From a virus (Duplodnaviria > Caudoviricetes), in IMG/VR virus record IMGVR_UViG_3300031951_000074, positions 27,615 to 91,614 of that record: a stretch of DNA of 64,000 nucleotides. One strand, written 5' to 3'. Shown one piece after another: positions 3,567-25,686 of the stretch. Position numbers and translations under genes: made by a program. The notes under the pieces are model-generated. The model saw only the letters and a list, made by a program, of their open reading frames with translations. It was not told the DNA's origin and made no database searches. Numbering within the stretch: the first letter of the stretch is position 1; each line of letters starts with the position of its first letter.

Positions 3567-3574
3567 GGTTATTT

Positions 3575-3805
3575 ATGAGAAAACAATTTTTATTAAACAC
3601 AGATGGATCTGTTCCAGCAGGTGTAGATATAAACCTGTTAAGATCTGAAAATATACCATTAGTAATTCCTACCCCAGTACCAGTACAGTCAGGTATGGTT
3701 GCAGTAGAACAAGACCCTAAACCTGACGAGTATGGCGTACTGCGGCAAGTTTGGAAACTGGAACCTTTTGTTGCAGAAAATCAACCAACCCCTGAAGAAC
3801 TATAA
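3575..3805 (+). CDS. Small tail-fibre-associated protein (possible chaperone)
   Basis: 76 aa, GAGG RBS, directly after the fibre gene; 'QVWKLEP' motif resembles fibre assembly proteins. Confidence 0.6.
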   Translation: MRKQFLLNTDGSVPAGVDINLLRSENIPLVIPTPVPVQSGMVAVEQDPKPDEYGVLRQVWKLEPFVAENQPTPEEL

Positions 3806-3836
3806 AACCCAAACCAAGCGTTCCATATTTTTTAGC

Positions 3837-3865
3837 TTGTACACTTGAGTACGATATGTTATAAT
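3837..3865 (+). promoter_or_regulatory. Sigma70-type promoter TTGTAC-N17-TATAAT
   Basis: Intergenic, 17-nt spacer, upstream of ORF 3913. Confidence 0.7.
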
Positions 3866-3912
3866 ACAAACAAATACCAGCATAATTTTTAACCTTTTTA
3901 AAGGGCTATTAA

Positions 3913-4269
3913 ATGACAACAGAATTCAAAATTGTTATCGATAACATTCGTACTCATGATGTTCAAAACTTTGAAAAGGTAGTAAAACAAATTGATTTTA
4001 CTATTAGTGGTACAAAACAATCAGAAACATTCTCTTTACCACAAAGCTTGGTTTTGACGGATAAACAAATAGAAAACTTTATTCCTTTTGAAGATCTTAC
4101 AGAAGCCTGGGCCGTAGACTTGATTGAAAAGAACTTTGATAACATAGAACAAGTAAAGTCACACATTGAATACGTACTAGATACTATGGTTTTAAAAAAG
4201 AATCTAGTTCAACAAAGTCTACCTTGGGCTTCGGCAAGCAATGCTGTACGCCCTTTTGTTCTTTTTTAA
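3913..4269 (+). CDS. Hypothetical phage protein (FIPFEDLTE...LPW family, often beside tail genes)
   Basis: 118 aa ORF with FIPFxDLTE and LPW motifs. Confidence 0.65.
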   Translation: MTTEFKIVIDNIRTHDVQNFEKVVKQIDFTISGTKQSETFSLPQSLVLTDKQIENFIPFEDLTEAWAVDLIEKNFDNIEQVKSHIEYVLDTMVLKKNLVQQSLPWASASNAVRPFVLF

Positions 4270-4281
4270 AGGGTATGATTT

Positions 4282-6321: not shown

Positions 6322-7565
6322 TTACAACAATTTCAACCCTACCACAATCACCAAATCGTAACGATCCTGCAACTTTTAGTGACAAAGCAGACGCTCTTTT
6401 GGGGGCAATGCCTACTCTTGTAACAGAACTAAATAGTTTTGTTAACGAAGTTAATACACTCAGTTTTAAAACTGCTTGTAAAGCCGCTACACTCGCTGCA
6501 ATTACATTAAGTGGTACCCAAACAATTGATGGGCAAAACATAGTTGCAGGCGACAGAGTATTGGTAAAAAATCAAGCCAGTCTGGCAGAAAACGGTATTT
6601 ATACAGCAAGTATTAATGCTTGGACAAGAGCACCAGACATGGATACAGTTGCTGAAGTTGCTGGCAGCTTTGTACCTGTTACTTTTGGGGCACAGCAGGG
6701 TGGAAAGATCTACTATACCACTTTTAATGCCACTGGAGCTACTTTGGGAACAACAGCTATTCCTTGGAATAGTTTAACAGAAGCCAGTATTACTGGAATA
6801 GGTACTGTTGCAGTTGCAAATGGCGGCACTGGTATTGCAAGTTATGCAATTGGTGATTTGATTTACGCCAGCGGTACAACTACTCTTGTAAAGCTAGCAG
6901 CAGCAGCGAGTGGTAATGTTTTAAAAAGTGGCACTGCGCCTAGCTGGGGCAAAGTAGCTTTAACATCTGATGTGTCTGGTACGCTTCCTGTGGCGTCTGG
7001 CGGTACTGGCGCAGCCACTCTGACCGCGAACAACGTCTTGCTGGGCAACGGCACCTCTGCTGTTCAGACGGTAGCGCCTGGTACGGCGGGCAATCTTTTG
7101 ACCTCTGTTGGTGGCACTTGGGCAAGCGCTCCTCCACCGGCGGGTGGAGTGACAAGTCTCAACAGCCAGACAGGTGCTGTTGTAACGACCGGATTTGGTG
7201 ATATCGGTAGTGTTGCGGTACTGATGATTGCAACTAATACCAATGTGGCGGTTGGTTCGACTGTTGCGGGTAGCGATCTTCGATACGGTTGGAATCCCAA
7301 TTTTGGTGCAATGACCTACGGAGGTCTTACCGATTTTGCGACCAATCGTGGAAACAGTTCGGCAACATATAACGGCGGTGGCACTGCCCCGGCCGGGGGT
7401 GTCGGAACTTGGCGAAAGATAAGCTCTGGGAATACGTATTTTTCATCTGGTGGGTCTTACGCGGGAGTCAATTTAGTTTCTGCCTGCTGCGGCTCTTTTT
7501 TACAAGTTCAAGTATTTTCGGCTTCTTACGTTTGGGCCGCAGCCCTCTACGTCCGTGTTTCTTGA
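6318..7565 (+). CDS. Tail fibre protein with a mosaic, GC-richer C-terminal tip
   Basis: ATG at 6318 overlaps the previous stop, with an AAGGA RBS; 'LSGTQTIDG..GDRVLVKNQ..ENGIY' and 'LPVASGGTG' fibre motifs. Confidence 0.8.
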   Translation: MITTISTLPQSPNRNDPATFSDKADALLGAMPTLVTELNSFVNEVNTLSFKTACKAATLAAITLSGTQTIDGQNIVAGDRVLVKNQASLAENGIYTASINAWTRAPDMDTVAEVAGSFVPVTFGAQQGGKIYYTTFNATGATLGTTAIPWNSLTEASITGIGTVAVANGGTGIASYAIGDLIYASGTTTLVKLAAAASGNVLKSGTAPSWGKVALTSDVSGTLPVASGGTGAATLTANNVLLGNGTSAVQTVAPGTAGNLLTSVGGTWASAPPPAGGVTSLNSQTGAVVTTGFGDIGSVAVLMIATNTNVAVGSTVAGSDLRYGWNPNFGAMTYGGLTDFATNRGNSSATYNGGGTAPAGGVGTWRKISSGNTYFSSGGSYAGVNLVSACCGSFLQVQVFSASYVWAAALYVRVS

Positions 7566-7573
7566 GGTGCATC

Positions 7574-7846
7574 ATGTTCAATGTTCAATATGCAACTGAT
7601 CTGGTCTGGGCAGATGCGGATCAAACCAACTTCAAATGCAACGTCAAGCTGGCCGAGTTTGATGAAGTCATGCCGTGCGGTGTAAACGCAACGGATCGGT
7701 ACGCACACATCAAAGAGCTTTGGACCAGGGGACTCGCGGGAGAGTACGGCCCCATCGCGCCCTATGTCGCGCCGCCTGAGCCGGAGCCCGAGTCCGTTGC
7801 ACCTGTACAGGGACAGCCTACGCAGACGGGTGCGGAGCAGTTCTGA
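7574..7846 (+). CDS. Tail fibre assembly chaperone-like protein
   Basis: GAGG RBS and ATG at 7574; 'WAD..', 'AGEYGPIAPYVAPP' motif of tail fibre assembly proteins. Confidence 0.7.
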   Translation: MFNVQYATDLVWADADQTNFKCNVKLAEFDEVMPCGVNATDRYAHIKELWTRGLAGEYGPIAPYVAPPEPEPESVAPVQGQPTQTGAEQF

Positions 7847-8124
7847 TGAAATCTGTTTCCTCCAAATACAGCGTGACCTACGACGGTGCGGTGATGAACA
7901 TCTACCACGCCAACAAGGGCGAAGGTCTTCCGGCTCACGAACATCGGTACTCGCACCTGACCATGTGCCACTCCGGTCGCTGTGTTGTGCGGAAAGAAAA
8001 GGGCGAGCGCATCATCGACAAGAACTCTACGCCGCTGAACTTGGTTGCCGGGGAGTGGCATGAGATCGAGGCGCTGGAGGATGATACGGTGTTTGTAAAC
8101 GTCTTTGCAGAGGGAAAGCAGTGA
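7846..8124 (+). CDS. Cupin-fold protein
   Basis: 92 aa; HxHxxxH...H cupin metal motif (PAHEHRYSHL...WHEIEALED). Confidence 0.75.
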   Translation: MKSVSSKYSVTYDGAVMNIYHANKGEGLPAHEHRYSHLTMCHSGRCVVRKEKGERIIDKNSTPLNLVAGEWHEIEALEDDTVFVNVFAEGKQ

Positions 8125-8216
8125 ACTTCGATGCAGCTTTCAACACCCTTCTCAATCCAGCACCCAACAGCCACCAACTTCGATATAGTATCACTATCGA
8201 TTATATAAGAATAAAT

Positions 8217-8249
8217 AAAATACACCCACTAACCCTGGGTGTATTTTTT
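8217..8249 (+). terminator. Rho-independent terminator
   Basis: TACACCCA/TGGGTGTA stem followed by a T-run. Confidence 0.7.
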
Positions 8250-8251
8250 AC

Positions 8252-8280
8252 TTGACAATTTTTACCCTGTATAGTATAAT
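8252..8280 (+). promoter_or_regulatory. Perfect-consensus sigma70 promoter TTGACA-N17-TATAAT
   Basis: Exact consensus, directly after a terminator and upstream of ORF 8325. Confidence 0.85.
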
Positions 8281-8324
8281 TATACCTATAAAAAAATCTA
8301 TACTTGTTTTAAGCAGGAGTTATT

Positions 8325-8909
8325 ATGACAGCACCTACCCGACTAAATTTAAAGATTTATCAGGGCAGTACCTTTAGGCAAATCTTACGTTGGGAAAGTG
8401 CTACAAAGGTATATGTTCCTGTAACCTCTATTACAAACGCAGCACCAATGGTAATTACAGCCAATGCTCATGGAGCCCCTCAAGGCTGGAGAGTAAAACT
8501 CAGCAATGTGAATGGAATGAAAGAAGCCAATAATCTAGACTATGTAATAGCCACCGGAACCACTACAAACACCGTTACTATAAACAGTGTAAACAGTATT
8601 GGTTTCGCTACTTATACTAGCGGAGGCGTACTGGAGTACAATCAGCCCGTTGATTTAAGTGGTGTAACAGCAAGAATGCAGATCAGACCAAAAGTAGACA
8701 GTGATCAAATATTAGACACTTTAACAACAGAAAATAATAAGATTGTTTTAGATAACGTTTTAAAAACTATTACAATAGAAATAGACGAATCTGTAACTGC
8801 ATCGTACTCTTTTAAGAGTGCAGTCTATGATCTAGAAGTCGTCAAAAACAACGATGTTATCCCATTTTTAACAGGAACAATCCTGCTTACTAAAGAGGTA
8901 ACACGATGA
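8325..8909 (+). CDS. Fibre-attachment/collar-like beta-sandwich protein (T5 p132/LtfC-like)
   Basis: 'LKIYQGSTF', 'PVDLSGVTARMQIR', 'AVYDLEV..G.I..EVTR' motifs; AGGAG RBS. Confidence 0.65.
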   Translation: MTAPTRLNLKIYQGSTFRQILRWESATKVYVPVTSITNAAPMVITANAHGAPQGWRVKLSNVNGMKEANNLDYVIATGTTTNTVTINSVNSIGFATYTSGGVLEYNQPVDLSGVTARMQIRPKVDSDQILDTLTTENNKIVLDNVLKTITIEIDESVTASYSFKSAVYDLEVVKNNDVIPFLTGTILLTKEVTR

Positions 8910-12387: not shown

Positions 12388-13812
12388 ATGGCTAACGAAT
12401 TCAAAGTAAAAAACGGGATTAAATTTCCAGACAACACAATCCAAACTACCGCTGCTGCCGGCAGCGGTACTAGTTCATTAGTAAGCGGCACAGCAGTAAA
12501 TAGTACTAGTGGCACAACAATTGATTTTACCAGTATTCCATCTTGGGTAAAACGCGTTACTGTTATGTTTAGTGCTGTAAGTACAAGTGGTACTTCGTCT
12601 TTATTGGTTCAAATCGGCGATAGTGGCGGAATCGAAACCACAGGGTACGATAGTTATGCATTGTACGCCCCTTCTAGTGGTGGATTTATTTCGTCCACTT
12701 CTGGATACGTTCTAGAACCAACAGGATATTTGAGCGGCACAATCGCCAGGTATGGTATGATTGTACTAGCCAATTTAACAGGTAACAACTGGGTAGCATC
12801 TTCGAATTTGTACGAAGGATCTGGCGGTGTTGTAGCAATGGCCGCCGGAGGAAAAACCCTTTCTGCAGTATTGGATCGTGTTCGTGTTACCACAGTTAAT
12901 GGTACCGATACTTTTGACGGCGGCACTATCAACATATTATATGAAGGTGGTGGCGTTGGAGGCACGCTGGATTCAATAACAGACGTTAGCGCCCCGGCTC
13001 CTTCTAATGGCCAAGCACTGGTTTGGAACAGTACTACTAGTCAATGGGAAGCTCAAACTGTAAGTGGTGGTGGTGGAACAGGTATTTCTTGGAGTAAAAA
13101 GACTAGTAACTATACTGCGTCAAGCGGAGACTTTTTATTAACCGATACAGGATCTGGCAGTTTTACCGTAACATTGCCGTCTTCACCAACTACTGGAAAT
13201 TTTGTTGTAGTAGCAGATGCCAATGATTGGAAAACAAACAATCTAATAATTGCAAGAAACGGTAGTACAATAGAAGGATTATCTGAAGACTTGTATTTAA
13301 ATATAAAAGGAATCCAGGTAAGTATTATATTTGATGGCACTACTTGGGAAGTGTTTGCTTTTGCAGCACCTTCTATAGATATTACAAACGATACTTCTAC
13401 CAATACTACACAGTATCTTACAATGTCGCGAGCCACAAGTGGGGCTCTGAACGGTGCCTATGTTAGCAATAGTGGTTTAACATTTAATCCAAGTACTGGT
13501 ACTCTGTCTTCTACCAATTACAACTCTTTATCAGATAAAAACCTTAAAAAGAATATACAGCCACTAGAAGATTATGGCTTTATATTAGATCAATTAAACC
13601 CTGTAAAATTTCAATGGAAGTCGAACGACAAAACAGGATTTGGTTTAATAGCTCAAGAGGTTGAAAAAGTATTACCAGAAATAGTAGAAGATAATGATAC
13701 TTATAAAACAGTAAGCTATCAACAGCTTATACCATTTTTATTAGCGTGTGTTAAACAACAGCAAAAAGAACTAGAAGAATTAAAGGAGATAGTAAATGGC
13801 AACATTAACTGA
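12388..13812 (+). CDS. Tail fibre with a C-terminal intramolecular chaperone (peptidase S74-like)
   Basis: C-terminal 'LSDKNLKKNI...GLIAQEVEKVLPEIV...' followed by a coiled coil. Confidence 0.85.
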   Translation: MANEFKVKNGIKFPDNTIQTTAAAGSGTSSLVSGTAVNSTSGTTIDFTSIPSWVKRVTVMFSAVSTSGTSSLLVQIGDSGGIETTGYDSYALYAPSSGGFISSTSGYVLEPTGYLSGTIARYGMIVLANLTGNNWVASSNLYEGSGGVVAMAAGGKTLSAVLDRVRVTTVNGTDTFDGGTINILYEGGGVGGTLDSITDVSAPAPSNGQALVWNSTTSQWEAQTVSGGGGTGISWSKKTSNYTASSGDFLLTDTGSGSFTVTLPSSPTTGNFVVVADANDWKTNNLIIARNGSTIEGLSEDLYLNIKGIQVSIIFDGTTWEVFAFAAPSIDITNDTSTNTTQYLTMSRATSGALNGAYVSNSGLTFNPSTGTLSSTNYNSLSDKNLKKNIQPLEDYGFILDQLNPVKFQWKSNDKTGFGLIAQEVEKVLPEIVEDNDTYKTVSYQQLIPFLLACVKQQQKELEELKEIVNGNIN

Positions 13813-14071
13813 TTTATTGGGCTCTACTTTTAGTGGGTTGGGCTTTACCTTTTATCCTTCTTTTAATTTAGCAACTGTTTACAATAAAAATGACGTAGTT
13901 CATTACAGTACAAATGGAAATACTTATGTGGCTATAGCTAACGGTATATCCACGGGAACTACTCCAGACCTGGATACTTCTAACTGGGCACTGTTTGTTC
14001 CAAAGGGTGATACGGGCGGTGGTGGAATTACAACAGGAAAAGCCATTGCAATGGCCATAGTTTTTGGATAA
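13796..14071 (+). CDS. Small structural protein (carbohydrate-binding-like module, ends GKAIAMAIVFG)
   Basis: AAGGAG RBS; 'YNKNDVVHY..NTYVA..TPD...W' module. Confidence 0.6.
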   Translation: MATLTDLLGSTFSGLGFTFYPSFNLATVYNKNDVVHYSTNGNTYVAIANGISTGTTPDLDTSNWALFVPKGDTGGGGITTGKAIAMAIVFG

Positions 14072-14083
14072 GGATAATAAAAA

Positions 14084-14449
14084 ATGGCAAATCCTAATAT
14101 TGTAAACGTAGCAACCATACTTGGAAGAACTGTTGGTGCTGCTTTAACTACAACTAGTGCCGACATTGTAACCAACAGTGCGGGTAGTAACAAGATTTTT
14201 AAAATCAACTCCGTCTATGTGTCTAATGTAGACGGAACCAATAATGCGACTGTTGATGTTACTTTTTACGATGCCAGCGCAACAACAAGTTATTATTTAG
14301 CGGATGCGATTGTTGTGCCTGTTACATCAACCTTAAAAGTAGTAACAAAAGATGCTTCTATTTACTTAGAAGAGGGCGATAAAATTGCAGCACTAGCCAG
14401 TGCTAATAATGATTTACAGATCGTTGTTAGTTACGAGGAGATCAGCTAA
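14084..14449 (+). CDS. Small virion structural protein (MANPNIVNV family)
   Basis: 121 aa; 'VSNVDGTN', 'IYLEEGD', 'VSYEEIS' motifs common in aquatic phage tail regions. Confidence 0.7.
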   Translation: MANPNIVNVATILGRTVGAALTTTSADIVTNSAGSNKIFKINSVYVSNVDGTNNATVDVTFYDASATTSYYLADAIVVPVTSTLKVVTKDASIYLEEGDKIAALASANNDLQIVVSYEEIS

Positions 14450-15366
14450 TGAACGGTAATTTAATAGGTGCTGTAAATTTACCAACTATTAGTTCTGCTT
14501 CAGGTGTATGGACTATTGAAGAAGTAAAACTAGCACGGCAGCAGAGTATTTGGCCAGGACTCATAGTTATAGACTACTTGATAGTTGCAGGCGGTGGCGG
14601 TGGTTCTGATTATGGTGCTGGTGGCGCCGGCGGATATAGAACAGGTACTATTAATACTGGTGTGTTTAATAACAGTTTTACTATTACTGTTGGTGCAGGT
14701 GGTTCCGGTGCAGCCACAGGCTCTAACGGATCAGACTCTGTACTAGGTACATTTGTATCATCAGGCGGCGGTAGAGGGGGAAAAGCAAACACAAGCCCGG
14801 GGCAAAATGGCGGATCTGGTGGCGGTGGTGGTTATGCAAGTACAGGCAATCCCGGAGGTTTGGGTAACACCCCAGCAACTACTCCATCACAAGGTAATAA
14901 CGGTGGAGCAGGTTATAATCTAAACGGTGCACCATTTGCAGCAGGTGGCGGAGGTGGTGCAGGTGCAGTGGGTCAGGCAGGTCAATCCACCATTGGTGGT
15001 GCGGGTGGTGCGGGGTCTTCTTCAACAATAACAGGTTCGTCAGTCACTTACGCAGGAGGTGGTGGGGGAGGACATTTCAGCGGAACCGGAGGAAATGCAA
15101 GTGGTGGTACCGGTGGGGGTGGTACAGGTGGTAAAAATAGCTCTGGTACAACTGCAGGCACTGCAAATACTGGCGGCGGCGGCGGCGGTTCTGGTGTAAC
15201 TAGCGGTTCTGGAGGATCTGGTGGTTCGGGGGTAGTAATTATAGCATATCTTGATTCTTTTCCGGCATTAAGTAGTATAGATGTTGGGTTAACATACGAC
15301 CAACCTTCAAGATCAGGTTACAGAGTATATAGATTTACTGCAGGTACCGGAACCGTTACGGTTTAA
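14449..15366 (+). CDS. Glycine-rich tail fibre/adhesin protein
   Basis: 305 aa; 'YLIVAGGGGG...GGAGGY...GGSGVVII' glycine-rich domain. Confidence 0.75.
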   Translation: MNGNLIGAVNLPTISSASGVWTIEEVKLARQQSIWPGLIVIDYLIVAGGGGGSDYGAGGAGGYRTGTINTGVFNNSFTITVGAGGSGAATGSNGSDSVLGTFVSSGGGRGGKANTSPGQNGGSGGGGGYASTGNPGGLGNTPATTPSQGNNGGAGYNLNGAPFAAGGGGGAGAVGQAGQSTIGGAGGAGSSSTITGSSVTYAGGGGGGHFSGTGGNASGGTGGGGTGGKNSSGTTAGTANTGGGGGGSGVTSGSGGSGGSGVVIIAYLDSFPALSSIDVGLTYDQPSRSGYRVYRFTAGTGTVTV

Positions 15367-15782: not shown

Positions 15783-16313
15783 ATGGCTATTAAAGTACAA
15801 AATACTACTGTAATAAATGACAGTAGACAGTTAGAAAATATAAGTAATTTAAAGACTGTTAACAGTCAAAGTATATTGGGGGCTGGCGATATTTCTATTA
15901 CTGGTATTCCAACAGCCGGTACAACGGGACAAGTACTTACAAAAAATAGTTCTACAAACTACGATGTTTCTTGGATAAATCCAGGAAATGAAGTAACCTC
16001 AACTGTTACCAGTAGTGCAGGTGCTGCTACCATAAATACCAGTCTAGCAACTGTATTTTTGCATTCTTTAACAGAGAATACCACATATACATTTTCTAAT
16101 CCTCCTGCAAGCGGAACTGGATATACTATTACTTTAAAAATAGTACAAAACAGCACTCCTCGTACAATTACTTGGCCAGCCAGTGTAAAATGGGTAGCTG
16201 CATCACCGCCAACACTATCAACAGGAAGCGGCGACGTTGACGTATTTGCGTTTTTTACGCATGATGCAGGAACTAACTGGTATGGTTTTGTTGCTGGACA
16301 GGATCTGTCATGA
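15783..16313 (+). CDS. Tail fibre-like structural protein
   Basis: AGGAG RBS; 'RTITWPASVKW...PTLS..DVFAF' C-terminal domain. Confidence 0.7.
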   Translation: MAIKVQNTTVINDSRQLENISNLKTVNSQSILGAGDISITGIPTAGTTGQVLTKNSSTNYDVSWINPGNEVTSTVTSSAGAATINTSLATVFLHSLTENTTYTFSNPPASGTGYTITLKIVQNSTPRTITWPASVKWVAASPPTLSTGSGDVDVFAFFTHDAGTNWYGFVAGQDLS

Positions 16314-17860
16314 GTTCCAATAGAAAGATATTAATGGCAGCTGCTGGTAACACTAAGCCTGGGTGGGAATTGGACAAAGCAGTTTTACCAAATTTTTTGA
16401 ATGTTAATAGTCAGACCGCCAATGCATTTGGAATGTTCTTTAGCCCTGATGGCTTAAACTTGTATATTGGAGGTGATTCTTCAGTATTTCAGTATGTGTT
16501 GAGTACTGCTTGGTTGGTATCCACAGCTACATACACAAGATCTTTTACTTTTACAAATTCAATAGTGGGTGTACATTTTAGTACAGACGGTACTAAAATG
16601 TTTATAATAAATCCGAATCACTTAATAACAAGGTACACAGTGAGCACTCCTTGGAATATAAGTACTCTTACCTATGGTGGAGAAATTCAACTCTACTCGT
16701 ACGATACCTCACCCCAAGATCTATTTTTTAGCTCTGATGGTACTATCATGTATACTTTAGGATCTACAACTGACTCCGTGTATCAATTTACTTTAGGATC
16801 TGCCTGGAGTTTGTCTAGTGTAACGTATGTTCAAAGCTTTTCAGTCACAGCACAAGACACAACGCCAACTGGTTTATTTTTTAAAGCAGACGGCACTAAG
16901 ATGTACGTCATGGGACTTGCAGGAGACGATATAAATGAATACGCTCTTAGTACTGCATGGAATATAAGTACAGCAAGTTTTGTGCGAGTCAGCGGAGGTA
17001 CTCCAGAAGGAAGTCCAGGTGGTTTATTTTTTAAACCTGATGGTTCTGTGGTATATTTTGTCGGAAGTGGTCTAGACACAGTTTATACCTATATTGCTAC
17101 AACTCCTTGGAATGTATCCACGCTTAAAACAGACAGATTTTTTAGAGTTGCAACCCAAGAGACGAGTCCGCAAGCAATATTCTTTAAACCAGATGGTACA
17201 AAAATGTACGTCATGGGATCTACAGGAGACGATGTCAATGAATACAGTCTTAGTACTGCCTGGGATATATCCAGTGCTACTTATGTAAGAATATTTGTTG
17301 TTTCAACACAAGAAACAACGCCAACTGGTTTATTTTTTAAAGCAGACGGTACTAGAATGTACGTAGTAGGTAGTACTGGCGACGATATAAACGAATACAG
17401 TCTTAGTACTCCATGGGATATAAGTACTGCTACTTATGTAAGAGTTTCTTTAGCGCTAACGGAAACTAATCCACAAGCACTATTCTTTAAACCAGATGGT
17501 ACTAAGATGTATTTAATAGGTAGTACATACGATCAGGTGGCGGAATACGACTTGTTAACTGCATGGAATGTAAACACTCTAGCCTCTGTAGGAACATTCT
17601 CTCCTGGATTCGACACTGGGCCTACAGGAATATTTTTTAAACCAGATGGTTCTAGAATGTTTCTTTATGGATTTGGTAATGACAAAGTTTATTCTTATAA
17701 TCTAAGTACTGCATGGAATATTTCAACGGCATCATACTACCAACAATTGAGTTTAAAAAATCTGGATGAAATAATAAATGATATTTATATAAGACCAGAC
17801 GGTAAAAAGTTGTATGCTGTAGGCAGTACAATTGATGCAGTTTTTGAAATAAATTTATAA
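16310..17860 (+). CDS. Beta-propeller repeat protein (putative receptor-binding/tail tip)
   Basis: About ten ~50-aa repeats 'P.GLFFKPDGTKMYV.G...D.INEY.LSTAWDISTA'. Confidence 0.8.
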   Translation: MSSNRKILMAAAGNTKPGWELDKAVLPNFLNVNSQTANAFGMFFSPDGLNLYIGGDSSVFQYVLSTAWLVSTATYTRSFTFTNSIVGVHFSTDGTKMFIINPNHLITRYTVSTPWNISTLTYGGEIQLYSYDTSPQDLFFSSDGTIMYTLGSTTDSVYQFTLGSAWSLSSVTYVQSFSVTAQDTTPTGLFFKADGTKMYVMGLAGDDINEYALSTAWNISTASFVRVSGGTPEGSPGGLFFKPDGSVVYFVGSGLDTVYTYIATTPWNVSTLKTDRFFRVATQETSPQAIFFKPDGTKMYVMGSTGDDVNEYSLSTAWDISSATYVRIFVVSTQETTPTGLFFKADGTRMYVVGSTGDDINEYSLSTPWDISTATYVRVSLALTETNPQALFFKPDGTKMYLIGSTYDQVAEYDLLTAWNVNTLASVGTFSPGFDTGPTGIFFKPDGSRMFLYGFGNDKVYSYNLSTAWNISTASYYQQLSLKNLDEIINDIYIRPDGKKLYAVGSTIDAVFEINL

Positions 17861-18325: not shown

Positions 18326-18790
18326 ATGGACCCTATTACTGCAATAGCTATGGCGAGTACTGCATTGGGTACAATTAAAAGCGCTATAAACACTGGAAAG
18401 GAAATTCACGAAGTAACCAGTGAAATAGGCAAATTTTTTGGAGCGGTAACAACCGCAAGGAGTATTCCAAAAAAGAAAAAGTCTATTTTTAAAAAGTTAT
18501 TGGATAAAGGGTCCGTAGAGCAAGAAGCTCTGGAAACAATTGTCAATCAGAAAAAACTGGAGCAAATGGAGTCTGAACTACGTGAGTTAATCGTGTATAC
18601 TTATGGTGTAGAAACCTACAGAGACATGATTATCTTGCGTAGAAAGATAAAACTGGACAGAGAATTAGAGGAAAAGAAAGAGCTTTTGAAAAGAAAAGAA
18701 CTGTTTGAAAACTATATTTATGCAGCCGTTATAATGGGATGTGTTGGTGTAATAGCTTGGATAACAATCGTAATACTACAAAATATATAA
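18326..18790 (+). CDS. Membrane-anchored coiled-coil protein at the head of the lysis cassette
   Basis: AAGGAG RBS; MDPITAIA start; C-terminal TM helix. Confidence 0.6.
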   Translation: MDPITAIAMASTALGTIKSAINTGKEIHEVTSEIGKFFGAVTTARSIPKKKKSIFKKLLDKGSVEQEALETIVNQKKLEQMESELRELIVYTYGVETYRDMIILRRKIKLDRELEEKKELLKRKELFENYIYAAVIMGCVGVIAWITIVILQNI

Positions 18791-18794
18791 AATC

Positions 18795-19262
18795 ATGGAA
18801 CAAGTATTGTGGATTTTAGGGTTCTTGCCCAAAGCTTTCTGGTTTCTTTTGTTGATAATCTCTTTTTTAGTGTTGTTATTGAATAGGCTTTTAAATAAAA
18901 TTCCAGGATTTTATTTGTACAGTGGTTACATAAAAACCGCCTCCGTAATAGCACTGATTGTTTCTTCTTGGTTTATTGGATACAACTACAATGAAACCAA
19001 GTGGCAAACAGAAATAAAAGAAACAAAACAAAAGATAGAAGTACTGGAACAAAAGAATAAAGACTTGAGTAACACACTAGAAACCCGTTCTCAAGAAAAG
19101 ATTGTTGAAATACAAGAAAAAACAAGAAACGTAATAAAGTTTGTAGAAAAGCAAGTGCTCCAAGACAAAGAAGTAATTAAGTATGTAGAAAGTTGTCCAA
19201 AACTGCCAGATGCTGTATTAGAAGCACATAATAGAGCAGCTCACTTGGAGAAGCAAAAATGA
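18795..19262 (+). CDS. Putative inner-membrane spanin (Rz-like)
   Basis: N-terminal TM helices and a periplasmic coiled coil; overlaps a lipoprotein gene. Confidence 0.65.
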   Translation: MEQVLWILGFLPKAFWFLLLIISFLVLLLNRLLNKIPGFYLYSGYIKTASVIALIVSSWFIGYNYNETKWQTEIKETKQKIEVLEQKNKDLSNTLETRSQEKIVEIQEKTRNVIKFVEKQVLQDKEVIKYVESCPKLPDAVLEAHNRAAHLEKQK

Positions 19263-19516
19263 AAATTTTTGTAGGTTTAGTACTGAGTTTGTTATTAACC
19301 GGCTGTTGGAAAACTATTCCCACTTTTCCAACACCTCCGCCTTCAGCCATGGAAAGTTGCCCCGTTTTAGAAAAAGCAAATGACGCAGATTTAGAGTCTT
19401 TTATTAAAACAGTAATAAAAAACTATGAGTCTTATTATTTGTGTAAAAATAAAACAGATACTTGGATAAAGTGGTATAGTGATACTTCAAAAAACTATAA
19501 GGAATCTATTAAATGA
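19259..19516 (+). CDS. Putative outer-membrane spanin lipoprotein (Rz1-like)
   Basis: Lipobox LLTGC, Pro-rich linker, overlaps the i-spanin candidate. Confidence 0.7.
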   Translation: MKIFVGLVLSLLLTGCWKTIPTFPTPPPSAMESCPVLEKANDADLESFIKTVIKNYESYYLCKNKTDTWIKWYSDTSKNYKESIK

Positions 19517-20124
19517 TTTCAGAAGATAAATTAAAGGAATTGATTCCTAAAAACAAATATGTCCCTCAGTGGTCAAAAGCTTTGAATTTAATACTTCCAG
19601 ACTACGAGATTAATAGTACACTGAGAATTGCTGCATTTTTAGCACAGTGTATTCATGAAAGTGGTGGTTTTATTTTCTTAACAGAAAACTTAAACTACAA
19701 GGCTGAAAGTTTAATGAGAGTATGGCCACGTCATTTCCCTACTTTAGAAATTGCAAAAAGCTATGAGCGTAATCCACAAAAGATTGCAAATAAGGCGTAC
19801 GCAAACAGAATGGGTAATGGGGATGAAAACAGTGGCGACGGTTGGCGATACTGCGGACGCGGGTTAATTCAATTGACTGGTAAATCAAACTATCAAGCAT
19901 TTGCAGACTCAATTGAAACACCACTACAAGATATTCCAGAGTATCTTCAGACATTTGAAGGAGCAGTTCAAAGTGCTTGCTGGTTCTGGGAAACAAATAA
20001 CTTGAATGTGTTAGCTGACAAAAAAGATATTTTGGGATTAACTAAAAAGATCAATGGCGGAACTATTGGATTAGATGATAGAATAAAACACTACGAACAT
20101 GCACTCCATGTTTTAGGAGGCTAA
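19513..20124 (+). CDS. Endolysin, glycoside hydrolase family 19
   Basis: 'FLAQCIHESG', 'ENLNY', 'GRGLIQLTG..NY', 'SACWFW', 'INGG..GL.DR' motifs. Confidence 0.92.
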   Translation: MISEDKLKELIPKNKYVPQWSKALNLILPDYEINSTLRIAAFLAQCIHESGGFIFLTENLNYKAESLMRVWPRHFPTLEIAKSYERNPQKIANKAYANRMGNGDENSGDGWRYCGRGLIQLTGKSNYQAFADSIETPLQDIPEYLQTFEGAVQSACWFWETNNLNVLADKKDILGLTKKINGGTIGLDDRIKHYEHALHVLGG

Positions 20125-20126
20125 TA

Positions 20127-20426
20127 ATGTTAAACGACAAAAAATTGTTTTTGGGATTATTGGCACTATTAATAATTCCTATCACGGCATCCTTTATAAT
20201 GTTTGGAAAAGATCATTTTAGATATCAATGTCAGGATCCAAAAAATTGGAGCTCAGAACAGTGTAAGCCGCCTATATGTGATGTTACGCGCTCTTGCCCA
20301 GAACACGTATTTAAAGGTCAAAGAGATCCGCGATTAGGGCCACCACCACCAGTCGTATTTACCGCACAGCCTCCAAGCTGTCCTAGTAGTTGTGTTGCAG
20401 GAGCACAAGATGGAAAACAAAAATAA
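20127..20426 (+). CDS. Membrane-anchored Cys-rich protein
   Basis: N-terminal TM; 'FRYQCQDPKNW...C.PP.C...CPE'. Confidence 0.6.
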   Translation: MLNDKKLFLGLLALLIIPITASFIMFGKDHFRYQCQDPKNWSSEQCKPPICDVTRSCPEHVFKGQRDPRLGPPPPVVFTAQPPSCPSSCVAGAQDGKQK

Positions 20427-20826
20427 TTTTATGTACACAGAAGAACAGCTCATGGCAAGATTAAAGTTTTTTATAGGTGTATGTCTTGCACTAACACTGT
20501 TCGGAATTGTGTTTGTGGTACTGTACAGCATTATATTTGTTGCTCAACCATTGAATGCAATAAGTCCAATAGATCAAAAGTTCTTTGAATTGATTGTTCC
20601 TATCGCAACTTTTTTGACTGGTACATTGAGCGGTATTATGTTGGCTGGCAATAAAAAAGAAGATCAAGAAGCAATGTTGAGTGCTCAAAAACTGGCAAAC
20701 GACAACTTTGCAGAAACAAAAAAGACTATTGCACGAGTTCATGAAGAAAAAAAGGAACCGGCTTTAGGTCTTCCACAACCACAAGTGTTAAAAGCCCCCA
20801 TCCAACCACCACATCCGGAGATTTAA
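20410..20826 (+). CDS. Two-TM membrane protein (holin candidate)
   Basis: AGGAG RBS before ATG 20410; two hydrophobic helices; lies near the endolysin. Confidence 0.55.
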   Translation: MENKNNFMYTEEQLMARLKFFIGVCLALTLFGIVFVVLYSIIFVAQPLNAISPIDQKFFELIVPIATFLTGTLSGIMLAGNKKEDQEAMLSAQKLANDNFAETKKTIARVHEEKKEPALGLPQPQVLKAPIQPPHPEI

Positions 20827-20827
20827 A

Positions 20828-21025
20828 ATGAAAAAAGTTTTTGCACTGTTAGTTTCTTTTAGTTTGTTGATGCCGGTATATGCGGCAGAAACAAAAGAAG
20901 TATGTAAGCCCAAGATGACAAAAGATAACAAAGAGGTTTTGGATAAAAATAAGAAACCTGTTATGGACTGCAAAAAAATAAAAGTTCATAAAAAGCATGA
21001 AGGAACTCCTGTACCTTCAAAATAA
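20828..21025 (+). CDS. Small secreted Lys-rich protein
   Basis: Signal peptide MKKVFALL...VYA; two Cys. Confidence 0.55.
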   Translation: MKKVFALLVSFSLLMPVYAAETKEVCKPKMTKDNKEVLDKNKKPVMDCKKIKVHKKHEGTPVPSK

Positions 21026-21736: not shown

Positions 21737-22507
21737 ATGGAAGAACTAAAAAGTTGCCCTGTTGGTACACTGTACTCAGAGGTAAATCTACAAAATCATA
21801 TTTTTGCCTTAGAACTTGGTGAGTACGGACCAGCAGACCCTCGTCAGCCCAACACAGAGTTTTGGCAAAACAAAATGAAGATCTGGGATGTAAATGAGGG
21901 CACCGCAATAATGAGAGTTTGCACCAGCTGTCATTTTGCAGATAAAACTGCAGAAATGCAAGACTGCATTATTGAGGGACCAGGCGGCGAGTTCAAAGAA
22001 AGCGATCTTCCATTGAACCCTGTTTGGGCAGAGATTGATGGATTACCATACTACTACTGTACCAGATGGAACATGACAATCAATCCATTACGTACATGCA
22101 ATGGTTGGCAACCAGAAGACTGGGAACCAGACGAAGACGAAGACGAGGAACACTCTAAAAACTACGTCGAAAAAGCACTTACTTACAAACCTACAACCGG
22201 AATGGCAAGTGCAGCAAGACGAGCATTAAAGTGGAAAGACGAAGGTCGTCGTGGTGGTACACGAGTAGGATTGGCACGAGCCAATCAGCTTGTACGCCGT
22301 GAAAACCTGAGTGAGAGTACTGTGTTACGCATGTATTCTTTCTTTAGTCGACACGCTGTTGACAAACAAGCAACAGGATTTAGTAGTGGCGAAGAAGGTT
22401 TTCCTAGCCCTGGCCGAGTTGCGTGGGACTTGTGGGGTGGTGACGCTGGCGAGAGTTGGAGCAAAGCCAAGCGTGATCAAATCATGAGAAGACGAGAAAG
22501 CAAGTAA
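21737..22507 (+). CDS. Two-domain hypothetical protein (Cys-rich N-domain; basic C-domain with AWDLWGG)
   Basis: 256 aa; CxxC motif; acidic linker; C-domain 'GGTRVGLARANQL...RM.SFFSRH...VAWDLWGG'. Confidence 0.7.
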   Translation: MEELKSCPVGTLYSEVNLQNHIFALELGEYGPADPRQPNTEFWQNKMKIWDVNEGTAIMRVCTSCHFADKTAEMQDCIIEGPGGEFKESDLPLNPVWAEIDGLPYYYCTRWNMTINPLRTCNGWQPEDWEPDEDEDEEHSKNYVEKALTYKPTTGMASAARRALKWKDEGRRGGTRVGLARANQLVRRENLSESTVLRMYSFFSRHAVDKQATGFSSGEEGFPSPGRVAWDLWGGDAGESWSKAKRDQIMRRRESK

Positions 22508-22509
22508 AT

Positions 22510-22550
22510 AAAAAAGCCCGCTTAGATAATACTAAGCGGGCTTTTTGTTT
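22510..22550. terminator. Bidirectional rho-independent terminator between converging units
   Basis: AAAAAGCCCGCTTAG-loop-CTAAGCGGGCTTTTT. Confidence 0.9.
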
Positions 22551-22759
22551 TAGTCGTCGTGTTCATGAACAAGGTGTTTGTAGTGTTTCATTGTTAACAC
22601 AGCACCCTTCTTTTCTTCTGTTAAACGCACAATCTTTTCCATTAATTCGTGCAAGTCTTCGTCTGTTGCATCTGTTGCGTATTCCATAAGCCGTAGCAGC
22701 AGTGGAATATTTAGTTTAACAACATCTTCTGTATCCTGACGTACAATAAATAGCATCAT
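22550..22759 (-). CDS. Small hypothetical protein (DVVKLNIPLLLRLMEYA)
   Basis: 69 aa; last gene of the minus-strand cassette. Confidence 0.6.
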   Translation of the reverse strand: MMLFIVRQDTEDVVKLNIPLLLRLMEYATDATDEDLHELMEKIVRLTEEKKGAVLTMKHYKHLVHEHDD

Positions 22760-22775
22760 GATCTTGTGCTTTCAA

Positions 22776-23180
22776 TTAAACTGCGTTCCAGTTTGTTCCA
22801 TTAAAAACTAATGTAACACTTCCGTCTGTTGCTGCTAAAATTGTATAGCTTGCTGCATTTTCAATCGTTTCTGCTCCGTTTGGAACAATGGTAATGTCAC
22901 TTGTTTGACCGGCTTCTGATTTGATTACAACTGTTCTGCCATTAGTGCCTGCAGTTAGGTTGATCGTAACACCACCCCCAGCCCCTTGCACGCCCAAATA
23001 ATAATTTGGAGTAGTACCAGCACTGTCCAGTGTATACGGACTGGCTGCATCAGTAACTGTGTAAACATTAACAGTGTCGTTTCCTACAACAGAAATGATA
23101 CCGTTGGTTACACTGATATTTGTTCCAACTTTAACTACACCGTAGCCTGTAGTTGAGGCTAATGGACTATTGAATGCCAT
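22776..23180 (-). CDS. Small beta-domain protein (cassette paralog) with an N-terminal GVVKVG motif
   Basis: AAGGA RBS; shares 'GVVKVG..ISVTNGIIS' with ORF 23505 and its C-domain with ORFs 23198 and 24059. Confidence 0.75.
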   Translation of the reverse strand: MAFNSPLASTTGYGVVKVGTNISVTNGIISVVGNDTVNVYTVTDAASPYTLDSAGTTPNYYLGVQGAGGGVTINLTAGTNGRTVVIKSEAGQTSDITIVPNGAETIENAASYTILAATDGSVTLVFNGTNWNAV

Positions 23181-23197
23181 GATTTTTTCCTTTAGAG

Positions 23198-23503
23198 TTA
23201 TCCTGCTATTGTTTTCCAGTTAATACCGTCATATAATAACAACAGTCGGCCGAACTGGGTGTTTATAATAGCAAATGCTGCACCATCAACGGTCTTGCCA
23301 CCAGGTGCTGTGATTGTAATTGGGTTGACTTTGGAATTGCCCGAAAAATCTTTGACGTAATAACTTCTGCCTTTTTTGTCGCCAGAAACTGCTGGTAGTA
23401 TTATGGACGAACTTGTGGCCACATTACTCAGTATTACTTCGTCATCGGTAGTAATGATATAAGGAGTAGTGGTAATTATTTTGGTATCATAATTTATGGC
23501 CAT
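23198..23503 (-). CDS. Small beta-domain protein (cassette paralog)
   Basis: 'ILPA..G..Y.VKD.SG....NPITI....TVDG...LLYDG.NW' motif. Confidence 0.75.
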   Translation of the reverse strand: MAINYDTKIITTTPYIITTDDEVILSNVATSSSIILPAVSGDKKGRSYYVKDFSGNSKVNPITITAPGGKTVDGAAFAIINTQFGRLLLLYDGINWKTIAG

Positions 23504-23504
23504 T

Positions 23505-24062
23505 TTAGTCTATCCTTGTTACCGTGACTTTGGCAGCATACCCAGTTGGTCGTGTTGGATTAACCTGTGCAGCAATAGGAGAAAAACCGGTTGTTATATC
23601 GGGACTACTCCAGCACATTTGAATATTATCACCAGCTGATAGTGCTAGTGTAAAATTACCACTTAAAAATACAATAGATAACACGTTGGTTAGTTGCAGC
23701 TCTTGAGTACTACCAACCACATCTACACCGTTTTTTCTTAACCAAATACTAAGCGTTGCAGTTCCACCACTGGTTTTTGTAGTAATTAAATCAAATATTT
23801 GAGTGTATGTTCCAGCATTGCTGACAACAATACTATCACCGCCGCCAATGCTAACACCATTTGAAGGACCCAAAGTATCAAAGGTTACTATGTTGACTGC
23901 ATTAGCAACTGGATTGGACTGAGGTGTACTGCTACTAATAAAACCGTAATTGTTAGATCCCGCAGCTCCAGCACTGATTATTCCATTTGTTACACTAATA
24001 CCACTTCCTACTTTTACGACTCCATAGTCTGTGGCACTAGCTATATTCTGATTGTAGCTCAT
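23505..24062 (-). CDS. BclA-C-terminal/C1q-TNF-like domain protein
   Basis: ATG at 24062 overlaps the previous stop; 'VTFDT...SIVVSNAGTY...WLRKNGVDV.GS...L.AGD.I' pattern. Confidence 0.65.
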   Translation of the reverse strand: MSYNQNIASATDYGVVKVGSGISVTNGIISAGAAGSNNYGFISSSTPQSNPVANAVNIVTFDTLGPSNGVSIGGGDSIVVSNAGTYTQIFDLITTKTSGGTATLSIWLRKNGVDVVGSTQELQLTNVLSIVFLSGNFTLALSAGDNIQMCWSSPDITTGFSPIAAQVNPTRPTGYAAKVTVTRID

Positions 24063-24553
24063 ACCACGTTCCATTCTATTCCGTTGTAGATCAAACTAAT
24101 AGATCCCCAGTCTGTATTTAGAGTATAACTTGGTTGAATATCTATTGTTGAGGACGTTGCAGTTATTGTAATAGGATTTGTATTTGCAGCTCCAACACTA
24201 TCTTTTACAATAAACACTTTGCCTAGAGTACCAGCTGGTAAGTTTATTGTAACTGTGCCATCATAAATAACGCCTAAAAAGTATTCGTCAACAGTGGCGT
24301 TGTATGTGGGGTCGTCTATTAAAGTAACAGGAACGTTTGCAAGTGTGCCGGGGGGTCCTTGTGGACCTTCTGGTCCCTGCGGCCCTGGCGGACCCGGTGG
24401 TCCAGGAGGACCAAGCATACCGCCGTTATAATTAATAAAAAGGTCATTATCTTCGAGTAGGGGTGGCGGAGAACATGGAGCTACTGGCGGTACTGGAGGT
24501 ATTACAGGACACCAACCAATAATGGGCAATAAGTGCTGTCTTTGGTTTATCAT
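24059..24553 (-). CDS. Collagen-repeat protein with a C-terminal beta domain
   Basis: AGGAG RBS; Pro/Cys-rich N-terminus; eight consecutive Gly-X-Y triplets ([24 protein letters not shown]). Confidence 0.8.
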
Positions 24554-24567
24554 AGATAACTCCTAGT

Positions 24568-24600
24568 AAAAGCGCCCCCAGGTCTTTTGAACATGGGGGC
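24568..24600 (-). terminator. Intra-cassette hairpin (terminator/attenuator)
   Basis: On the minus strand GCCCCCA-loop-TGGGGGC followed by GCTTTT. Confidence 0.55.
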
Positions 24601-24617
24601 CAACCGTTAATTAGAGA

Positions 24618-25517
24618 TTATCTAATATTTGTATTTGTGTTTGCTGGATTAGCGGTTTGTGTTCCACTACCAACATTGATTGCTGAGTTAGTGCTCTGAA
24701 TTTGTTGGGCAATACCCCAGAGAGCATTGTAAAGCTGACCGTATTGTTGTTGCTGTTGAGCTTGCTGTTGCATCTGATTGATGTTGTTGGTTGTGTTGAC
24801 CTCAACACCACGAGTACGTTCGGCTGTATCGAAACGTGCCTGTAGAGCAATAACTGCTGCATTAGCATCGCTTAGCTGACGATTTAGTGTGGCCTCATAC
24901 TGTTGAGTAATAAGAGCACGTGTTTTTTCGCCGTCGTTAGAAATGTCTTTGGACAGTTCGTAACGATTTTGCATTACTTGCTGCTGAACACCATTTAACT
25001 GCTGAGAAAGCATCATTGTGCCTTGACTAACATTGTCTTTGACACCTTGAATAGCAATTAGATTTGCGCTAGTAGCTGAGTTAATTGCATTTGTTAGCTG
25101 GCCTGTTTGTGTGGCATTGCTAGTTTCTGTGGTTGCAGTGCCTAGAGCAACAGAACGATTAACATCGCCAATTGCTTGCATGAGGCTCATGTTAGCGTCA
25201 ACTTGCTCAGGCGGACTACGTAGAGTTGCTCCAGCACCACTGCCGTCGTTTCCGAAAAAGTTTCCGTTGTTGCGTAGAAGGCTTCCGAGGATAAGACCTC
25301 CAATTAGTCCGCCTCCGCCACCGCCCCCGAAAAGACCGTCGCCGCCGCCGCCGCCGCCCATAATCATGCTTGGAGTTAATACTTCTGCCATTTCATTTTC
25401 CTTTTCAGTAATTTTATCAGCCAGTTTCTTGTAATAACGCTTAGCTGATTCTTCTAATTTTCTTACATCTGCTGCTATGCTGTCCATAGTAGCAGGTACA
25501 ACTGCTTCTTCTGCCAT
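24618..25517 (-). CDS. Gly-rich, Q/N-rich coiled-coil protein (GEKTRALI motif); alternative in-frame start at 25391
   Basis: AAGGA RBS before ATG 25517 (299 aa) and before ATG 25391 (257 aa); the longer ORF-track start crosses a promoter and terminator. Confidence 0.8.
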   Translation of the reverse strand: MAEEAVVPATMDSIAADVRKLEESAKRYYKKLADKITEKENEMAEVLTPSMIMGGGGGGDGLFGGGGGGGLIGGLILGSLLRNNGNFFGNDGSGAGATLRSPPEQVDANMSLMQAIGDVNRSVALGTATTETSNATQTGQLTNAINSATSANLIAIQGVKDNVSQGTMMLSQQLNGVQQQVMQNRYELSKDISNDGEKTRALITQQYEATLNRQLSDANAAVIALQARFDTAERTRGVEVNTTNNINQMQQQAQQQQQYGQLYNALWGIAQQIQSTNSAINVGSGTQTANPANTNTNIR

Positions 25518-25596
25518 ATTTTCCTTCCTTTGTAAGTTTTGCAGGAAGTTCGTTTCGTTGATTTTTATATTTGTTATTTTACCACCAACTTTTACT

Positions 25597-25625
25597 ATTA
25601 TACTATTTTTGCTGGTAAAAAACAA
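25597..25625 (-). promoter_or_regulatory. Sigma70-type promoter TTGTTT-N17-TATAAT driving the 22.5-25.5 kb cassette
   Basis: 17-nt spacer, A-rich upstream element, just after the nrdJ terminator. Confidence 0.7.
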
Positions 25626-25645: not shown

Positions 25646-25686
25646 TAAAAAAAAAAAAGCCTGCTAAAAATTTAGCAGGCTTTTTT
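25646..25686 (-). terminator. Rho-independent terminator after nrdJ
   Basis: GCCTGCTAAA/TTTAGCAGGC stem with a long T-run on the minus strand. Confidence 0.85.

Follow-up and report, generated by a model that had tools for sequence, protein, structure and literature searches.

A six-gene cassette on the minus strand of a lake phage is best read, if tentatively, as encoding an accessory, non-essential, modular fibre attached to the virion. The cassette lies in a 64,000-nucleotide stretch (called the window throughout), namely bases 27615-91614 of the IMG/VR record IMGVR_UViG_3300031951_000074 (91.6 kb, estimated to be 87% complete), and we refer to its genes as g1 to g6 in the order of transcription (Table 1). 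We favour a virion fibre because the parts that can be identified are phage fibre parts, because no export signals are seen by eye and g1 and g2 appear to be coupled, and because distant homologues of g1 stand among structural genes and some g1 proteins carry a beta-rich N-terminal domain. An initial annotation of the stretch had described a self-contained unit with its own promoter, bounded by terminators, and had proposed that one abundant scaffold and minor fibre subunits form a structure separate from the virion. All six minus-strand open reading frames (ORFs) are indeed present, with a 15-pair hairpin at either end and a promoter-like site ahead of g1, and the unit is found in either orientation and is missing from some close relatives. 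The proposed subunit design is also supported; its non-virion setting is not supported, given the tail-fibre, baseplate and spike domains, the lack of visible signal peptides and the homologues in morphogenesis modules.

The most readily identified parts are encoded by g2 to g5. The g2 product has nine G-X-Y triplets of the Gly-Pro-X type and is a collagen-repeat protein, as annotated, though it scores 17.9 bits against the Pfam Collagen model, for which the cut-off is 27.2; much longer collagen runs occur in its homologues. All 16 aligned g2 homologues share one layout, in which a conserved Gln/Pro/aromatic N-terminus bearing an acidic x-D-x-D-h-h-I-N motif is followed by a collagen region, varying several-fold in length across loci, and then by a beta-domain. 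This domain of about 90 residues is common to the C-terminus of g2, g4 and g5, so that the two beta-domain paralogs recognised earlier, g4 and g5, have a third copy in g2. Its profile matches, among proteins in the PDB, T4 gp10 (residues 68-137; expectation value, E, 6.2e-5), a second gp10, gp9 (E 0.057) and a 250-residue tailspike (PDB ID: 7rfv; E 0.042). Sub-threshold Pfam matches are to T4_gp9_10_N (PF07880; 17.5 bits for g2 against a cut-off of 25), Phage_depo_C and StcE_b-sandwich, and among PHROGs g4 matches a 'baseplate protein' family (1.5e-8) and g2 tail-fibre families. A weak copy of the domain (residues 242-322, E 0.003) is found in a 474-residue tail-fibre/baseplate-wedge-like protein encoded at 12388-13812 of the window; the domain of the cassette thus also occurs in regular tail genes.

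The product of g3 shares a 30-residue N-terminal motif with g5 (70% identical), after which AlphaFold2 predicts a jelly roll (predicted local distance difference test, pLDDT, 89.8; predicted template modelling score, pTM, 0.78). Foldseek searches of the PDB with this model return, at E 5e-8 to 3e-6, the F-BclA tip fibrillum, 4-1BB ligand, BclA, ExsFA, BxpB and C1QL1, together with the central-spike knob of phi812 and a component of the portal-tail complex of cyanophage A4. The description of g3 as BclA/C1q-like therefore appears right at the level of the predicted fold. Pfam gives g3 no match to BclA_C, and its relatives reach 36.7 bits where the cut-off is 38. The g3 domain is present in 6,541 representative clusters; ten of these were scanned, of which eight have Pfam Collagen repeats and three sub-threshold BclA_C matches. 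No signal peptides are seen by eye in g2 to g5, and none of the six cassette proteins matches a glycosyltransferase in Pfam or PHROGs. The small g6 protein has no family in Pfam or PHROGs and no lead in the ESM Atlas, and is probably not part of the structure.

We scanned 31 loci with a g1 homologue using custom hidden Markov models (29 IMG/VR loci, At2 and one contig of a metagenome-assembled genome, MAG), among which L009-L012, L027/L031 and L029/L030 are near-duplicates. A gene with collagen and a beta-domain directly follows g1 in 27 of the 31, while a jelly-roll gene of the g3 type is present in 12, extra beta-domain genes in 14, and a collagen gene alone, mostly with long collagen, in 12; one contig (L026) ends just past g2 and cannot be judged. 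Homologues of g6 lie nearby in 18 of 30 loci, upstream of g1 in 17 and downstream of the fibre genes only in L004, a near-identical relative. The conserved core is accordingly g1 and g2; g3 to g5 come and go, and g6 is loosely linked. As to whether the genes are kept together in other phages, the six-gene set is not, and the pair of g1 and a collagen gene is. A further 15 loci were fetched through the neighbouring PhoH gene, three of which cannot be judged. Six contain the cassette: L051 and L061 have it on the minus strand, and L056, L057, L060 and L063 on the plus strand (L056 and L057 are the same contigs as L029 and L030). Another six lack it (L052, L053-L055, L058 and L059); in L058 PhoH, the gene for a 256-residue protein and the reductase gene stand directly side by side. 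Since it is absent from some loci and found in both orientations in others, the cassette is an optional, invertible module.

The link between g1 and g2 extends to the RNA. A hairpin follows g1 in 20 of 20 aligned loci, with about 10-12 pairs, a loop of the C-A-(A/C)-A-A type and, in most, a T-run after it. Of the alignment cells in the stem 88.1% are paired, compared to 71.1% after shuffling (none of 500 shuffles scored as high), compensatory changes on both sides occur in 7 of 10 pairs, and controls slid along the alignment pair at 57% or less. The hairpin noted after g1 is thus real, conserved and covarying. It is enclosed by an outer stem in which the region of the g1 stop codon pairs with the ribosome-binding region of g2. 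This duplex has a predicted energy of -10.8 kcal/mol in the window, equalled by 1 of 200 shuffles, and is strong (at most 3 of 200 shuffles as good) in at least 10 of the 20 loci, with 8 of 200 in one further locus; the true number is probably higher, since the automatic placement of the ribosome site was wrong in at least four other loci (L004, L008, L026 and L029). Rfam offers no match to the hairpin between g1 and g2, and sub-threshold 'leader' matches only on both flanking terminators. Together the two elements point to a leaky terminator combined with translational coupling, by which g1 would be made in excess, as had been suggested, and g2 and the later genes in smaller, linked amounts. 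Contigs from RNA libraries of four studies cover parts of g1 (24584-25236, some 98-100% identical) and none covers g3 to g6. We have not used them as evidence, as shared words were the means of finding the runs and conservation is highest in g1, such contigs cannot rank expression, and carry-over of DNA is possible. A separate feature of the g1 leaders (25518-25600 in the window, and upstream of g1 in L005-L026) is a pyrimidine stretch, CTTCCT or CTCC, complementary to the g1 ribosome-binding site about 20-30 nucleotides downstream, which may be a second layer of translational control.

The partner of these fibre proteins belongs to a large family, with more than 2,128 proteins at E of 0.001 or below among 8,000 candidates (clusters at 90% identity). 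Among the 120 matches listed none has a name besides 'hypothetical protein' or a Pfam domain. In the alignment of 21 homologues, 7 begin with an optional helical extension at the N-terminus; L027, which was aligned from its internal start, also has an upstream extension. A near-invariant Met-Ala-Glu start follows, which is the sole start in 14 of the 21, and then a Gly-rich stretch leading into a canonical GxxxGxxxG zipper (in the window poly-Gly and then G-LIG-G-LIL-G), so the glycine zipper of the initial annotation is borne out. The zipper is also present in phiPLPE gp38 and in the At2 homologue. Beyond it lies a long A-, Q-, N- and T-rich region, within which an NDG(D/E)KTRAL motif is found; a poly-Q stretch and then an invariant C-terminal block ending in NT..IR follow. 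Invariant columns are concentrated in the zipper segment and the C-terminal block, which are among the regions richest in them. The Q/N richness noted earlier also holds (Q 10%, N 9.4%). AlphaFold2 predicts helices at residues 11-46, 73-82 (short) and 103-277 (about 175 residues, pLDDT 70-87). A Shine-Dalgarno-like sequence precedes every Met-Ala-Glu start, in the long forms as well, and since the internal start has a ribosome site of its own, g1 may yield two products. In three loci the helical extension is replaced by a beta-rich domain of about 100-130 residues, homologous in all three and joined in frame to the g1 core at its N-terminus (L056 2751-3059, L060 3096-3440, L063 11211-11600); the L063 form is without the usual internal Met-Ala-Glu start. 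This domain matches no family in Pfam or PHROGs. A search for longer fused forms among 7,997 candidates found none, which is weak evidence.

Distant homologues place the g1 family in other structural surroundings. Gene product 38 of Iodobacter phage phiPLPE (NC_011142) is a homologue (hhalign probability 98.9%, E 1.5e-17), annotated as a 'putative tail-fiber protein' and encoded with a tail-fibre gene on one side and the neck and sheath genes on the other. The phiPLPE record marks mass-spectrometry confirmation for gp34 and gp35 and not for gp38, and the term 'gp38' has no occurrence in the available portion of the comparative paper PMC3391216. In At2 a 1,348-residue tail protein and then two small proteins are encoded ahead of the homologue, and a lysin three genes behind it. 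The gene order is portal, homologue, scaffold and capsid in L050, and terminase, two genes, homologue, protease and capsid in L046. In L049, a phiPLPE-like contig, a 732-residue collagen-like tail fibre (3507-5705) is encoded just upstream of the homologue (5995-6984), which the sequences indicate is a second, independent association of the g1 family with collagen proteins. In all, four other phage lineages have a distant homologue within a module for the head, neck or tail fibres. The family thus appears to belong to the late regions of lytic phages, mostly to morphogenesis modules and sometimes beside lysis genes. It was also searched for in the genomes of 185,579 bacterial and archaeal species, with a single match, on a viral-looking MAG contig.

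The two positions near the capsid genes, L050 and L046, could be taken to mean that g1 is an internal head or ejection protein of the 'pilot' type, which would enter the host envelope at infection. Microvirus H pilot proteins have a similar general layout, with a Gly-rich hydrophobic N-terminal part and a long Q/N-rich helix. We hold this to be very improbable, as neither a profile search of the PDB (E up to 1) nor Pfam gives a pilot or ejection protein, a collagen partner would be hard to account for if the protein were internal, and the cassette is dispensable in relatives. The L049 arrangement bears in turn on the idea that g1 is a chaperone or scaffold that assists assembly of the collagen-like fibre and stays outside the finished structure. 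Phage fibres often need dedicated chaperones (T4 gp57A and gp38), and g1 is tightly linked and coupled to the collagen gene, all-helical in its model and predicted to be abundant. The gene for such a chaperone, however, usually stands behind that of the fibre and is not the one with the highest expression in its unit, and no collagen gene adjoins g1 in At2, phiPLPE, the L032 lineage or L027, which leaves an assembly factor improbable.

In the virion fibre that we favour, g1 would be transcribed from its own promoter and be the main component by amount. The terminator after it would be leaky, and the outer stem would hide the ribosome site of g2 until a ribosome reaches the g1 stop codon, so that g2 to g5 would be made in smaller, coupled amounts. 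The g2 protein, presumably a trimer since collagen implies one, would form a collagen-type stalk with a beta-sandwich of the gp9/gp10 N-terminal type at its tip, to which g3 would supply a head of the BclA/C1q/TNF type and g4 and g5 further copies of the beta-sandwich. We infer that the glycine zipper and long helix of g1 mediate its oligomerisation into a stalk or anchor, which would grip the conserved N-terminus of g2, and that the shared N-terminal peptide attaches g3 and g5. The beta-sandwich and jelly-roll heads would bind glycans of the host surface or the environment, and the whole would be assembled on the head, neck or tail of the virion as a non-essential device for adhesion or host range. 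A complex prediction with three g1 cores and three g2 N-termini returned 'no answer' with a score of 0.00 and counts neither way.

Several observations weigh against this picture. The cassette lies outside the structural operon, is lost in close relatives and occurs in both orientations, so that it cannot be essential for assembly. For the six proteins the virion is a candidate location, proposed from their domains and gene context. For the g1 protein no relative with a known structure or function could be detected: Pfam and PHROGs give no real match, a profile search of the PDB gives at best E 0.7 (chance matches to proteasome subunits), the ESM Atlas gives unnamed viral clusters only, and Foldseek against the PDB gives a best E of 3.1 with a model of low confidence (pLDDT 64.8, pTM 0.24 for the whole chain). 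The coiled coil assigned to g1 earlier is not confirmed, as the 3.5-residue (heptad) periodicity was looked for in the long helix and not found. The part of gp10 that the beta-domain matches is the N-terminal module of XD1 type and not the XD2/XD3 docking modules. In the portion of PMC8825819 available, the XD1-type module common to gp9 and gp10 is given an unclear role, perhaps that of a spacer, and the docking of other trimers is assigned to XD2/XD3 in CBA120 TSP4; for this reason we claim no docking function for the domain. Glycine zippers, moreover, are best known from membrane channels, and the zipper is among the best-conserved features of g1. In the L032 lineage g1 lies immediately before the genes for the endolysin and the i- and o-spanins.

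The last two points belong to the main rival, in which g1 inserts into a membrane of the infected cell and has a lysis-timing, holin-like or superinfection-exclusion role, forming oligomers through its zipper, and the fibre genes are separate cargo. Many of the invariant columns of the family fall in the zipper region, the neighbourhood of lysis genes extends loosely to At2 (in the window g1 is about 4.5 kb away from them), and g1 has its own promoter and a terminator behind it. Several homologues combine the N-terminal extension with an internal start that has its own ribosome site, for which the dual-start holin/antiholin pairs offer an analogy. We nevertheless regard a membrane protein as unlikely. 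The hydrophobic core of g1 is only 11 residues long, and its best 19-residue window reaches a Kyte-Doolittle value of 1.37 where the usual threshold for a transmembrane segment is 1.6. Sequestration of the g2 ribosome site by the g1 stop region argues that g1 and g2 act together, and neither the beta-rich N-terminal fusions nor the positions in head modules would be typical of a lysis protein. Genes for a holin-like protein, an i-spanin, a lipoprotein o-spanin and an endolysin are already present in the window; g1 is not inside this lysis cassette, which is complete without it, and we have set aside g1 as the holin or spanin of this phage.

The structure originally proposed, in which g1 self-assembles into a matrix, mesh or coat apart from the virion and is decorated by the fibre proteins, would agree with the autonomous, accessory nature of the unit and its apparent design for high expression, with the low-complexity, Q/N-rich, helical character of g1, and with the match of the g3 fold to proteins of the exosporium and of endospore appendages. 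It has little probability in our view, as every domain that can be identified is an ordinary component of phage fibres, distant homologues of g1 are encoded in morphogenesis modules, and the collagen and the C1q-like head are on different chains, unlike in BclA. Since no export signals are seen by eye, such a structure would be assembled in the cytoplasm and emerge only when the cell lyses. A broader possibility, which we rate as quite unlikely, is that g1 represents a new class of abundant self-assembling proteins that form a coat, mesh or membrane-anchored array, on the capsid or off the virion, and carry collagen fibres with exchangeable lectin-like heads at low stoichiometry. Were this true, the array would be a phage analogue of the spore 'nap', widespread in freshwater phages.

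The features of the cassette are collected in Table 1. Its genes are closely packed, with an overlap of 16 nucleotides between g2 and g3 and gaps of at most 17 nucleotides elsewhere, with the exception of the 64 nucleotides between g1 and g2. The promoter-like site was caught by a looser pattern and is missing from the promoter scan, because its -35 hexamer matches at only 3 of 6 positions. It is identical in L004, and in L023 and L027 a TTGACT-17 nt-TATAAT site is seen by eye upstream of g1. We considered promoter type as a clock of expression and rejected it, since the same sigma-70-type sites precede structural genes such as the tape-measure gene. In agreement with the initial annotation the genes are not part of the T5 core, as g1 and g3 match only phages not named T5-like, and g5 none, among 50,697 phage records.

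Table 1. Predicted features of the cassette and its borders (window coordinates)
Feature	Position	Strand	Remarks
Terminator-like hairpin, bidirectional	25653..25686	.	15 pairs, T-runs on both sides; between the ribonucleotide reductase gene and the cassette
Sigma-70-type promoter-like site	25597..25625	-	TTGTTT-17 nt-TATAAT, about 80 nt upstream of g1
g1, long form (299 residues)	24618..25517	-	Helical N-terminal extension (residues 1-42) and family core
g1, core (257 residues)	24618..25391	-	From the conserved internal Met-Ala-Glu, with its own Shine-Dalgarno-like sequence
g1, Gly-rich segment and GxxxGxxxG zipper	25272..25358	-	Residues ~54-82
g1, predicted long alpha-helix	24687..25211	-	Residues 103-277 (AlphaFold2); rich in A, Q, N and T
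Terminator-like hairpin between g1 and g2	24568..24600	-	Stem 24574-24600, CAAAA loop, and T-run
Outer stem around the g1/g2 hairpin	24553..24625	-	g1 stop region (~24613-24625) pairs with g2 ribosome-binding region (~24553-24564) (RNAfold)
g2 (164 residues)	24059..24553	-	Gln/Pro/aromatic N-terminal motif; collagen 24341-24421; beta-sandwich ~24062-24331
g3 (189 residues)	23505..24074	-	N-terminal motif of ~30 residues and jelly roll (residues ~40-189)
g4 (101 residues)	23198..23503	-	One beta-sandwich domain of the gp9/gp10 N-terminal type
g5 (134 residues)	22776..23180	-	N-terminal motif and beta-sandwich of the gp9/gp10 N-terminal type
g6 (69 residues)	22550..22759	-	Small acidic protein, no family match
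Terminator-like hairpin, bidirectional	22511..22546	.	15 pairs; shared with the converging plus-strand block

The virus itself appears to be a distant T5-like phage and is probably a siphovirus, as the fused protease/major capsid protein shares about 35% identity with its counterparts in T5-like phages (My1, AhSzq-1 and Salmonella T5-like phages) and an ORF of 2,705 residues stands at the tape-measure position in the upstream part of the record. Lake and freshwater metagenomes (sequencing runs) contain the sequence of the window, and a search of a phage collection for near-identical DNA found none. The prohead protease and the major capsid protein form a single ORF of 665 residues (record bases 12689-14686; 3690-5684 in L034), in the place of which the matching T5-like phages have protease and capsid annotated as separate features. 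Also upstream of the window, record bases 298-8584 hold about 12 near-identical strong promoter-like elements, all on the plus strand within 8 kb (TTGAC(A/C)-18 nt-TATAAT, with the spacer core GGCCCAAAATTAT in common), resembling a T5-type early region with repeated strong promoters.

On one side the cassette is flanked by the minus-strand gene for a ribonucleotide reductase and on the other by a converging plus-strand block of tail fibres, lysis genes, PhoH and the gene for a 256-residue protein. At the end of the tail-fibre part, 16310-17860 encodes a 516-residue protein with about ten tandem repeats of some 45 residues (…FFKPDG.KMY..G…D.V.EY.LST.W.IST…), probably a beta-propeller, without PHROG matches at E up to 1e-5. 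The complete lysis genes (18326-20124) belong to a block at 18326-21025, and this gene set suggests a Gram-negative host. They encode a holin-like protein of 154 residues with a C-terminal membrane segment, an i-spanin of 155, an endolysin of 203 and a lipoprotein o-spanin of 85 with an LLTGC lipobox. Three more small envelope proteins follow, of 99 residues (Cys/Pro-rich, with an N-terminal hydrophobic segment), 144 residues (two hydrophobic segments) and 65 residues (Lys-rich, secreted). The 256-residue protein adjoining PhoH (21737-22507; phrog_2859) has a C-terminal domain that is duplicated, and found at differing positions, in some relatives (L057 and L059) and appears to be a mobile small domain gene.

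A collagen stalk, a head of the C1q/TNF type and a sandwich of the gp9/gp10 type are known building blocks. Their division among several very small proteins is not known to have been described, nor is their association with a partner from a huge, unannotated and highly conserved family that is apparently abundant, or with a conserved RNA element that would set the expression ratio. The partner family extends from this distant T5-like lineage (probably siphoviruses) to a dwarf myovirus and other lineages. Locating g1 in the virion, the membrane or a separate structure would annotate thousands of genes, and would account for an optional module with a probable effect on how abundant lake phages adhere or on their host range. 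The conserved hairpin and the sequestered ribosome site would also provide a clean natural case of fixed-ratio expression, as predicted from the RNA.

Parts of the cassette can be compared to several known systems. The closest counterpart to g1 is phiPLPE gp38, in which the N-terminal extension, an extended zipper, NDGEKTRAL, a Q-rich stretch and a Gly/Ser/Thr-rich C-terminus come in the same order, though phiPLPE is a dwarf myovirus with gp38 in its structural module and no collagen gene behind it. Its place just before the neck genes recalls whiskers of the fibritin type, and g1 may by analogy with T4 fibritin (wac) be a candidate for a long helical, oligomeric and dispensable fibre with conserved ends. 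Unlike fibritin it has no heptad periodicity, and it has no sequence or fold match to it in the PDB; the glycine zipper is not a feature of fibritin. The beta-domain of g2, g4 and g5 matches the N-terminal beta-sandwich of T4 gp9 and gp10, also found in branched tailspike complexes (CBA120 TSP4); such domains belong to the modular parts from which trimeric fibres are built. In the cassette, however, it lies at the C-terminus of very small proteins or stands alone (g4) rather than forming the base of a large baseplate protein, and the cassette differs from the branched receptor-binding complexes of CBA120 and G7C in matching XD1 and not the XD2/XD3 modules for trimeric docking.

The jelly roll of g3 leads to the BclA and F-BclA fibres of the exosporium and of endospore appendages (PDB IDs: 1wck; 3tyj; 9h38), which have the same TNF/C1q-type fold (E 5e-8 to 5e-7, template modelling scores 0.5-0.7) and a collagen stalk, which in the cassette is encoded next door. 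The initial annotation had likened the genes to the BclA architecture of collagen with a C1q-like head, which here is split over two chains and not found on one: g2 has the collagen and ends in a domain of the gp9/gp10 N-terminal type, and g3 is a separate polypeptide. The g2 triplets are of the Gly-Pro-X type, unlike the Thr-rich, glycosylated stalk of BclA with dedicated glycosyltransferases nearby, and the cassette belongs to a phage whose host is probably Gram-negative, not to a spore. In the Bacillus system the same fold serves both as the head of the fibre and, in the anchors ExsFA and BxpB (PDB IDs: 7r1m; 8d02; 9h3d), as an anchor that by the title of 9h3d binds the N-terminal peptide of a fibre protein.

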